Made by a program: the position numbers and the translations under genes. The notes under the pieces are model-generated. The model made no database searches, was not told the DNA's origin, and worked only from the letters and a program-made list of their open reading frames with translations. Positions 6,610 to 8,368 of a stretch of 8,368 bases of DNA are shown piece by piece; position 1 is the first letter of the stretch, and each line of letters opens with the position of its first letter. The DNA is from a virus (lineage: Duplodnaviria; Heunggongvirae; Uroviricota; Caudoviricetes), in IMG/VR virus record IMGVR_UViG_2609460059_000004, one strand, 5' to 3'.

Positions 6610-7070
6610 ACAGAGTAACCGCGATTATCTCCGCTCTGGTTATCTGCATCATCGTCTGCCTGTCATGGGCTGTTAATCATTACCGTGATAATGCCATTAC
6701 CTACAAAGCGCAACGCGATAATGTGAAGGAAAAACTCAACCAGGCGACCGCAATCATTACTGACATGCAGATACGCCAGCGTGATGTTGCTGCACTCGAT
6801 GCAAAATACCTGAAGGAGTTAGCTGATGCGAAAGCTGAAAATGATGCTCTGCGTGATGATGTTGCCGCTGGTCGTCGTCGGTTGCACATCAAAGCAGTCT
6901 GTCCGTCCGTGCGTGAAGCCACCATCGCCTCCAGCGTGGATAATGCAGTCTCCCCCAGACTGGCAGACACCGCTGAACGGGATTATTTCACCCTCCGGGA
7001 ACGACTGGTAATGATGCAGGCCCAACTTGAAGGTGCTCAGCAATACATAACCGAACAGTGTTTAAAGTAA
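6606..7070 (+). CDS. Rz: Rz-like inner-membrane spanin (i-spanin)
   Basis: ATG 6606 overlaps the endolysin stop (ATGA). N-terminal TM segment [14 protein letters not shown], then a charged, coiled-coil-like periplasmic domain. The track start at 6594 is a GTG. Confidence 0.85.
6826..7011 (+). CDS. Rz1: Rz1-like outer-membrane lipoprotein spanin (o-spanin), embedded in Rz in the +1 frame
   Basis: [24 protein letters not shown]: signal peptide with lipobox (VVGC), followed by a proline-rich mature region (PPSPPAW...PPDW); lies entirely within Rz. Confidence 0.8.
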
Positions 7071-7129
7071 AATCTTAACTACAATATGATTCATTTTGAT
7101 GATTGTTTCATAAGGAACAGTGAAGTAAG

Positions 7130-7170
7130 ATCTAAGATGAGTTAAATTTTATACAGTATAATCATAATGT
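7130..7170 (+). promoter_or_regulatory. candidate promoter for the trkG-like gene
   Basis: Perfect TATAAT at 7157-7162 in AT-rich DNA; no convincing -35. Confidence 0.2.
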
Positions 7171-7207
7171 TGCAGCAAGGTGGTTATAATTGAAAGAATA
7201 TTTAGAT

Positions 7208-8275
7208 ATGAATACATCTCATGTAAGAGTTGTTACTCATATGTGTGGGTTCCTGGTTTGGCTCTATAGTCTTTCAATGTTGCCACCAATGGTTGTAGCA
7301 TTGTTTTATAAAGAAAAAAGCCTGTTCGTTTTCTTTATAACTTTCGTTATATTTTTTTGCATTGGTGGCGGAGCGTGGTATACAACTAAGAAATCTGGTA
7401 TTCAATTACGTACCCGTGATGGGTTTATTATAATTGTAATGTTTTGGATTTTGTTTTCTGTTATTAGTGCATTCCCTTTATGGATTGACTCAGAACTTAA
7501 TTTAACGTTTATTGATGCTCTATTTGAAGGGGTTTCTGGAATAACAACAACAGGAGCAACTGTAATTGATGATGTTAGTTCATTACCTCGGGCATATTTG
7601 TACTATCGGTCACAGTTAAATTTTATAGGTGGCTTAGGAGTTATTGTTCTGGCGGTTGCTGTATTGCCATTATTGGGTATTGGTGGTGCAAAGCTTTATC
7701 AGTCAGAAATGCCAGGGCCATTTAAGGATGACAAACTTACTCCCCGCCTGGCCGATACGTCACGGACACTTTGGATAACTTATTCTTTATTAGGTATTGC
7801 TTGTATTGTCTGTTATAGACTTGCAGGAATGCCTTTGTTTGATGCTATTTGTCACGGGATATCCACAGTTTCGCTTGGTGGTTTCTCAACTCATAGCGAG
7901 AGTATCGGATATTTTAATAACTATTTGGTTGAGCTGGTGGCTGGTTCTTTTTCCCTGCTATCGGCTTTCAACTTCACCCTTTGGTATATTGTTATTAGCA
8001 GGAAAACGTTAAAACCTTTAATCAGAGATATTGAACTTCGTTTCTTTCTGTTAATAGCCTTAGGGGTGATCATTGTTACCTCTTTCCAGGTCTGGCATAT
8101 AGGTATGTATGACTTGCCTGGAAGTTTTATTCATTCGTTTTTTCTTGCCAGCTCCATGCTCACTGATAATGGTTTAGCTACGCAGGATTATGCAAACTGG
8201 CCCACGCACACGATAGTGTTTTTGCTGTTGTCAAGTTTCTTTGGGGGATGTATCTTGGCGGCCCGCTTGGACTAA
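7208..8275 (+). CDS. trkG: TrkG/TrkH-family potassium uptake protein, truncated: ends after 355 codons at a TAA where the conserved family motif should follow
   Basis: Multi-TM protein with glycine-containing P-loops (GITTTGATV, SLGGFSTHS, SSMLTDNGLATQ) and the run LLLSSFFGGCI, which aligns with TrkH LLLCSAFIGGCAGSTGGGLK as I recall it. The frame then reads LAARLD and stops at 8273-8275. Start taken at ATG 7208 (MNTSHVRV...); the track start at 7190 is a TTG. Visibly AT-rich; position after the spanins matches trkG in the Rac prophage. Confidence 0.8.
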   Translation: MNTSHVRVVTHMCGFLVWLYSLSMLPPMVVALFYKEKSLFVFFITFVIFFCIGGGAWYTTKKSGIQLRTRDGFIIIVMFWILFSVISAFPLWIDSELNLTFIDALFEGVSGITTTGATVIDDVSSLPRAYLYYRSQLNFIGGLGVIVLAVAVLPLLGIGGAKLYQSEMPGPFKDDKLTPRLADTSRTLWITYSLLGIACIVCYRLAGMPLFDAICHGISTVSLGGFSTHSESIGYFNNYLVELVAGSFSLLSAFNFTLWYIVISRKTLKPLIRDIELRFFLLIALGVIIVTSFQVWHIGMYDLPGSFIHSFFLASSMLTDNGLATQDYANWPTHTIVFLLLSSFFGGCILAARLD

Positions 8276-8368
8276 TGTCTATCGGTTTAATGGCCATTTT
8301 GGTCAGAGGTCTGGGGTTACTGATGCTGGGGGTTGCTTCAACGGCGGGCCAGTTACTGGGATCAGTAT
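8275..8368 (+). CDS. unidentified ORF with hydrophobic N-terminus, runs off the right edge
   Basis: ATG 8275 overlaps the trkG stop (TAATG); reads MSIGLMAILVRGLGLLMLGVASTAGQLLGSV... An in-frame ATG also exists at 8248. Not recognisable as the remaining TrkH sequence in any frame. Confidence 0.3.
   Translation, partial: MSIGLMAILVRGLGLLMLGVASTAGQLLGSV

Follow-up and report, generated by a model that had tools for sequence, protein, structure and literature searches.

TrkG is the TrkH-family K+ transporter subunit of the Rac prophage, and the trkG gene analyzed here occupies the same canonical place, just downstream of Rz/Rz1. Its coding sequence breaks off close to the end of a draft contig, and two kinds of described event resemble such a break. 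First, prophages decay by deletion and illegitimate recombination, which produce the same short microhomology and the same truncated prophage accessory gene; real decay deletions, however, leave a single junction, are passed on to descendants and are assembled through, whereas here there are two unrelated junctions, both located at contig ends and found in no other genome. Second, contigs built from short reads can have chimeric ends, which are known from IDBA, SSPACE and A5 assemblies and from template switching during PCR. These show the same joins between interiors of unrelated single-copy genes, and they likewise lie within one read of both contig ends, at microhomology, and in no other genome. 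Judging from this pattern, the break in trkG is very probably a chimeric contig end, that is, an assembly or library artifact and not a structure of the chromosome of the strain.

The window, by which we mean the whole stretch of DNA analyzed (8,368 bp), is the entire contig JFFL01000153.1 from assembly GCA_000599765.2, a draft MiSeq/A5 assembly of E. coli JA23, which is a blood isolate. The JA23 library was one of six TruSeq libraries that were pooled, sequenced on a MiSeq (2 × 250, 28x) and assembled with the A5 pipeline. This coverage of 28x was the lowest among the six pooled E. coli strains, and the contig N50 of the JA23 A5 assembly was 372 kb. A PacBio assembly of the same strain (JA23_pb, JMJB00000000) also exists and is independent of the Illumina assembly. 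The contig is numbered 153, yet the genome announcement gives 62 contigs and 42 scaffolds for the JA23 Illumina assembly; the assembly record is at version.2.

Between the two joins, positions 109 to 8253 (plus strand) are a segment of a Rac-like lambdoid prophage, identical at 8145/8145 positions to a copy (L005, GCA_964054765.1) that sits on a 4.6-Mb contig of another E. coli, and at 8144/8145 positions to the copy in APEC O1. The sole SNP relative to APEC O1, at position 403, is common to L005 and thus provides no strain-specific handle. The genes of the segment are DUF977, queH, sok/hok, a doc-type toxin, DUF1367, YbcO, a Q-like DUF1133 gene, tRNA-Thr, tRNA-Gly, holin, lysozyme, Rz/Rz1 and the 5′ 72% of trkG. 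An exact look-up of the neighboring Rz protein led to nine other genomes. In ten independent prophage copies (L005, APEC O1 and eight further), the sequence continues upstream into a DUF1627 gene and downstream through a full-length trkG into ParB_N, TAGT and terminase genes, and both junction strings were absent from all ten.

The queH gene (epoxyqueuosine reductase, PF02677) lies at 723-1388, and the same slot holds a DNA methylase and AAA-ATPase gene pair in other prophage copies (e.g., L007), marking it as a variable cargo site. A hok/sok type I toxin-antitoxin locus follows, with sok RNA at 1456-1632 (Rfam RF01794, 119 bits) and a Hok/Gef ORF at 1645-1782. Positions 2189-2674 contain a toxin gene of the Fic/Doc "death-on-curing" type; the 59-aa ORF in front of it (1991-2170) has no Pfam hit on record and could encode its antitoxin. 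Genes for tRNA-Thr(TGT) and tRNA-Gly(TCC), at 4967-5120, follow the Q-like antiterminator gene (DUF1133) and precede the lysis cassette. When the window was scanned for Rfam families and tRNAs, sok and these two tRNAs were the only hits, and nothing was detected at the junction. Inside the Rz gene, in another frame, a 61-aa ORF (6826-7011) with a lipoprotein-like N-terminus is consistent with the Rz1 o-spanin. In two other copies, insertion sequences separate the Q-like gene from the holin gene: one of the Transposase_mut type in L011 (7065-8273) and an IS21-like rve and IstB pair in L012 (5876-7845). Genuine insertions in this prophage thus differ clearly in appearance from the junction in the window.

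The trkG reading frame opens at 7190 or 7208 and closes at 8275, with the C-terminal end ...LLLSSFFGGCILAARLD before the stop. Positions 7208 to 8253 (plus strand) are identical to the first 1046 nt of the 1458-nt trkG in APEC O1 and many other strains, corresponding to residues 1-349 of 485. The initial annotation, made from the sequence alone, had described likeness to TrkH as far as ...SSFFGGCI, followed by LAARLD and a stop. We aligned the protein with the intact APEC O1 TrkG (485 aa) to find the breakpoint, and this alignment confirmed the description: the two proteins are identical as far as GGCI, after which the intact protein continues with GSTCGGIK (GSTCGGIKSLRF) and the protein in the window with LAARLD-stop, giving 355 residues (349 native residues plus LAARLD). 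Intact homologs do not share the sequence of the window at this point, as AGGTTCAACTTGTGGTGGAATTAAG (GSTCGGIK) is found directly past the right breakpoint in 10/10 prophage copies. Translation of the remaining bases also bore out the observation that GSTxGGIK is missing from all three forward frames. An exact look-up of the truncated TrkG protein returned a match on JFFL01000153.1 only.

The window ORF had a strong match to PF02386 (TrkH; E = 1.1e-95, 321 bits), covering profile positions 3-360 of 502. The full TrkH architecture is not present, as the intact APEC O1 TrkG spans positions 3-500; the last 136 residues of TrkG are missing, including the GSTCGGIK stretch and all that lies past profile position 360/502. 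We attribute this incomplete coverage of the profile to the chimeric join. In the TrkH structure, the missing part comprises the intramembrane loop, the last portion of repeat D3 and the whole of D4, which is the fourth pore repeat, and the truncated TrkG, if real, would be non-functional.

Two further observations concern trkG in general. Its sequence at 7201-8000 in the window is AT-rich (GC 0.34-0.41 vs 0.43-0.53 in the neighboring prophage genes), which is consistent with a foreign accessory "moron" gene. In another prophage copy (L013 10636-12061; LR134246.1), trkG is split into two called ORFs (308 and 185 aa), through either a frameshift-type disruption or a sequencing error, at a position other than that of the junction in the window.

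We resolved the end of trkG to base level. The last trkG-compatible base is 8253 and the first non-trkG base is 8254, with the crossover located somewhere in a shared octamer at 8246-8253. The 3′ part of trkG had initially been proposed to be replaced near 8255; unrelated DNA is indeed found there, but the switch is precisely at 8253/8254. Because the prophage match (99.96-100%) ends at 8253 and is absent beyond, while another gene takes over (126/127 identical bases over 8242-8368), this discontinuity is not chance variation. In all of the approximately 3,190 records that hold trkG, the trkG match ends at window position 8253-8254.

The gene that takes over encodes a YdcZ-type DMT family transporter (WP_000739817, 322 aa), and the right tail, at 8254-8368 (plus strand), was identified as its interior by megablast and by PF04657. 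The last 113 bases (8256-8368) are 100% identical to the interior of a "DMT family transporter" gene in about 2,000-2,050 genomes, and the matching region is single copy per genome. The base-level match extends back to 8242 and includes a trkG-specific base at 8245. The DMT piece corresponds to nucleotides ~709-823 of the 966-nt gene and is out of frame with trkG, which explains both the LAARLD-stop ending and the "new ORF." Specifically, the stop codon TAA at 8273-8275 (plus strand) is an artifact of DMT sequence read in the trkG frame. The initial annotation was right in noting that TAATG at 8273-8277 contains an ATG (8275-8277) that opens a hydrophobic ORF (MSIGLMAILVRGLGLLMLGVASTAGQLLGSV); this ORF is, however, not a novel overlapping frame but the DMT gene's own reading frame, entered at an internal Met. 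In its native frame the tail translates to ...YLGGPLGLMSIGLMAILVRGLGLLMLGVASTAGQLLGSV (residues ~237-275), which matches PF04657 (DMT_YdcZ). The tail is thus identical to the interior of a YdcZ-type DMT gene and translates in the native frame of that gene, but unlike the whole gene it comprises 115-127 nt only, with no start and no upstream or downstream context, and is therefore not a gene here. In Nissle 1917, the DMT gene is located in an accessory cluster between glutamine amidotransferase and phosphotriesterase-related genes, with IS remnants nearby; this cluster is present in about 38% of complete E. coli genomes.

A similar join is found at the opposite end of the contig. Positions 1-108 (minus strand) are the interior of the core gene yqjD (nucleotides 44-151 of 306; PF05957 hit), and these 108 bases are single copy and 100% identical to yqjD in 5,423/5,426 genomes. 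Here too the join creates an artifactual ORF, encoding a 47-aa DUF883 protein (1-142, minus strand); it begins in prophage sequence, crosses into yqjD and is cut off by the contig end. The prophage match begins at position 95, so the two sources meet in a patch at 95-108, where ATCGGAAA-GGGATT of yqjD is aligned with ATCGGAAAAGTGATT of the prophage (13/15, one gap). Only GATT (105-108) is perfectly common to yqjD and the prophage.

At the right junction, the 8-bp microhomology GGATGTAT (8246-8253) is perfect in both trkG and the DMT gene, and the similarity extends to 11/12 bases over 8242-8253 and to 13/16 over the last 16 aligned bases. In a simulation of random joins, the probability of a perfect match of at least 8 bp was 1.3e-4 and that of at least 13/16 was 1e-5; for the perfect part of the left join, the simulated probability was about 0.02. 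Microhomology at both junctions is beyond chance. It has no power to discriminate between in vitro template switching and in vivo illegitimate recombination, as both predict it; among artifacts, microhomology of this significance argues against chimeras formed by blunt ligation and for template switching during library PCR. The DMT parent sequence (L002 5990-5997, approximately window 8245-8252) also contains TCTGGTGG, left of and overlapping the microhomology, which has 7/8 bases of Chi (GCTGGTGG); this resemblance is probably coincidental.

We then considered whether the junctions occur elsewhere. By megablast, no match in the 5,426 complete E. coli genomes extended across either junction (0/5,426). 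A 34-mer across the right junction had 0 hits in metagenome and GTDB-representative contigs, and the plasmid collection held no junction-spanning match, only separate trkG or DMT matches. The distance from junction to contig end is 108 nt on the left and 115 nt on the right, in both cases below the length of a 250-nt read. The sequences of the two tails are 1.3 Mb apart in SK1144 and have opposite relative orientation, so a real structure would need several independent rearrangements, which would destroy a core gene.

These findings are those of a chimeric contig end: the junction is in no independent genome or assembly, the terminal tails (108 and 115-127 nt) are shorter than a read, and the defect is present at both ends. 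The initial annotation had proposed a biological insertion or rearrangement, for which we found no support given that the junction lies at the end of a draft contig with an equivalent yqjD tail opposite; it had also flagged assembly error as worth checking, and the chimeric contig-end pattern vindicates this caution. An assembler would have continued through a real junction, because the tails are single-copy sequence and do not reach the length of a 250-nt read. With a chimera, it would halt at the point where the minority path runs into the true locus, or at the end of a single chimeric read.

The contig would then consist of an authentic 8.1-kb stretch of Rac-like prophage with a foreign piece at each end, each joined at a short patch of similarity. 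Most likely, the polymerase switched templates at microhomology in the TruSeq PCR and so gave rise to chimeric library molecules. The paper describing A5 reports that misassemblies are occasionally present in IDBA contigs, that breaks are placed at an estimated position that is possibly ill-defined, and that SSPACE is used to scaffold and extend contigs. At 28x, IDBA could have incorporated chimeras into its contigs, which the A5 misassembly breaker then cut imprecisely. Alternatively, they may have been taken up during contig extension by SSPACE, via reads that map to no contig; as far as a secondary description of SSPACE goes, the extension step uses unmapped reads, which is the pool where chimeric reads end up. 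In the real JA23 genome, trkG, yqjD and the DMT gene would be expected to be intact, and if the junction is a chimeric contig end, the truncated TrkG and the "new ORF" would both be annotation artifacts.

Other assembly-level routes were tried and rejected. A merge in a de Bruijn graph at fixed k does not account for the joins, as the perfect tails of 123 and 108 nt fit no single k. A k of 127, suggested by the 127-nt DMT match, fails because that match contains the trkG-specific base at 8245 and because the assembler was IDBA within A5, not SPAdes. A spurious overlap of the SSAKE type during extension is an improbable cause of the left join, whose perfectly shared part is only 4 nt long.

A variant of the artifact, in which low-level carry-over between samples brought in prophage reads from another strain at low depth and chimeric reads extended the ends of the resulting contig, is rather unlikely. 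Carry-over would fit the pooling of the samples, the coverage of JA23 (28x, the lowest of the six) and a short contig that is numbered 153 though 62 contigs were reported; against this, the prophage may well be present in JA23 itself.

We consider it very improbable that microhomology-mediated (illegitimate) recombination, in JA23 or in a subpopulation of the culture, fused trkG at codon ~349 to the interior of the DMT gene. The 8-bp perfect and 13/16 imperfect microhomology is far beyond chance and typical of illegitimate recombination, and trkG, like other accessory genes of prophages, is dispensable and belongs to a class that frequently decays, as the split trkG of L013 may illustrate. This explanation does not sit well with a contig that ends 115 nt past the junction in unique single-copy DNA, nor with an independent and equally odd yqjD join at the opposite contig end and on the other strand. 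Furthermore, the junction is absent from the 5,426 complete genomes, the metagenome contigs and the GTDB representatives, and no fewer than two or three rearrangements, placed precisely on either side of this 8.1-kb piece, would be needed. An in vivo rearrangement is expected to be assembled contiguously into its flanking loci and to be seen in related genomes, and neither was found. If real, the trkG/DMT join would yield a 355-residue TrkG without the fourth pore repeat, and the yqjD join would have arisen separately in the same way, which would mean that illegitimate recombination is unusually active around the prophage.

It is scarcely credible that an IS, transposon or integrative element was inserted in trkG at ~8254 and that the tail is the end of this element. 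The abrupt loss of trkG homology and the new hydrophobic ORF would be expected of such an insertion, and two other copies of this prophage (L011 and L012) do contain IS insertions. However, in ~2,000 genomes the middle of a DMT_YdcZ gene (nucleotides ~709-823/966) matches the tail at 100% identity; the tail has no element terminus and no transposase or integrase homology, and it is single copy per genome, unlike an IS. A check of the sequence from 8255 onward against IS and integrative elements, as initially suggested, therefore leads not to an element but to the interior of this single-copy gene, and its identity refutes the element. Finally, a simple sequencing frameshift or base error in an otherwise intact trkG has a negligible probability: indel errors often account for premature stops in draft assemblies, but frame translation and alignment past 8254 refute one here, as no forward frame past 8254 encodes TrkG sequence and the DNA past 8253 has no similarity to trkG and belongs to another gene.

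The biological significance of the junction is close to nil, and its practical value is one of caution. The deposited contig holds two artifactual ORFs, the truncated TrkG with its LAARLD end and the 47-aa DUF883 fragment, both of which are present in protein collections, and these could pass for pseudogenization of trkG or yqjD or for a prophage integration junction. As a screening rule, a junction found within about one read of a contig end, with the same at the other end, should be presumed an assembly artifact until reads show otherwise.
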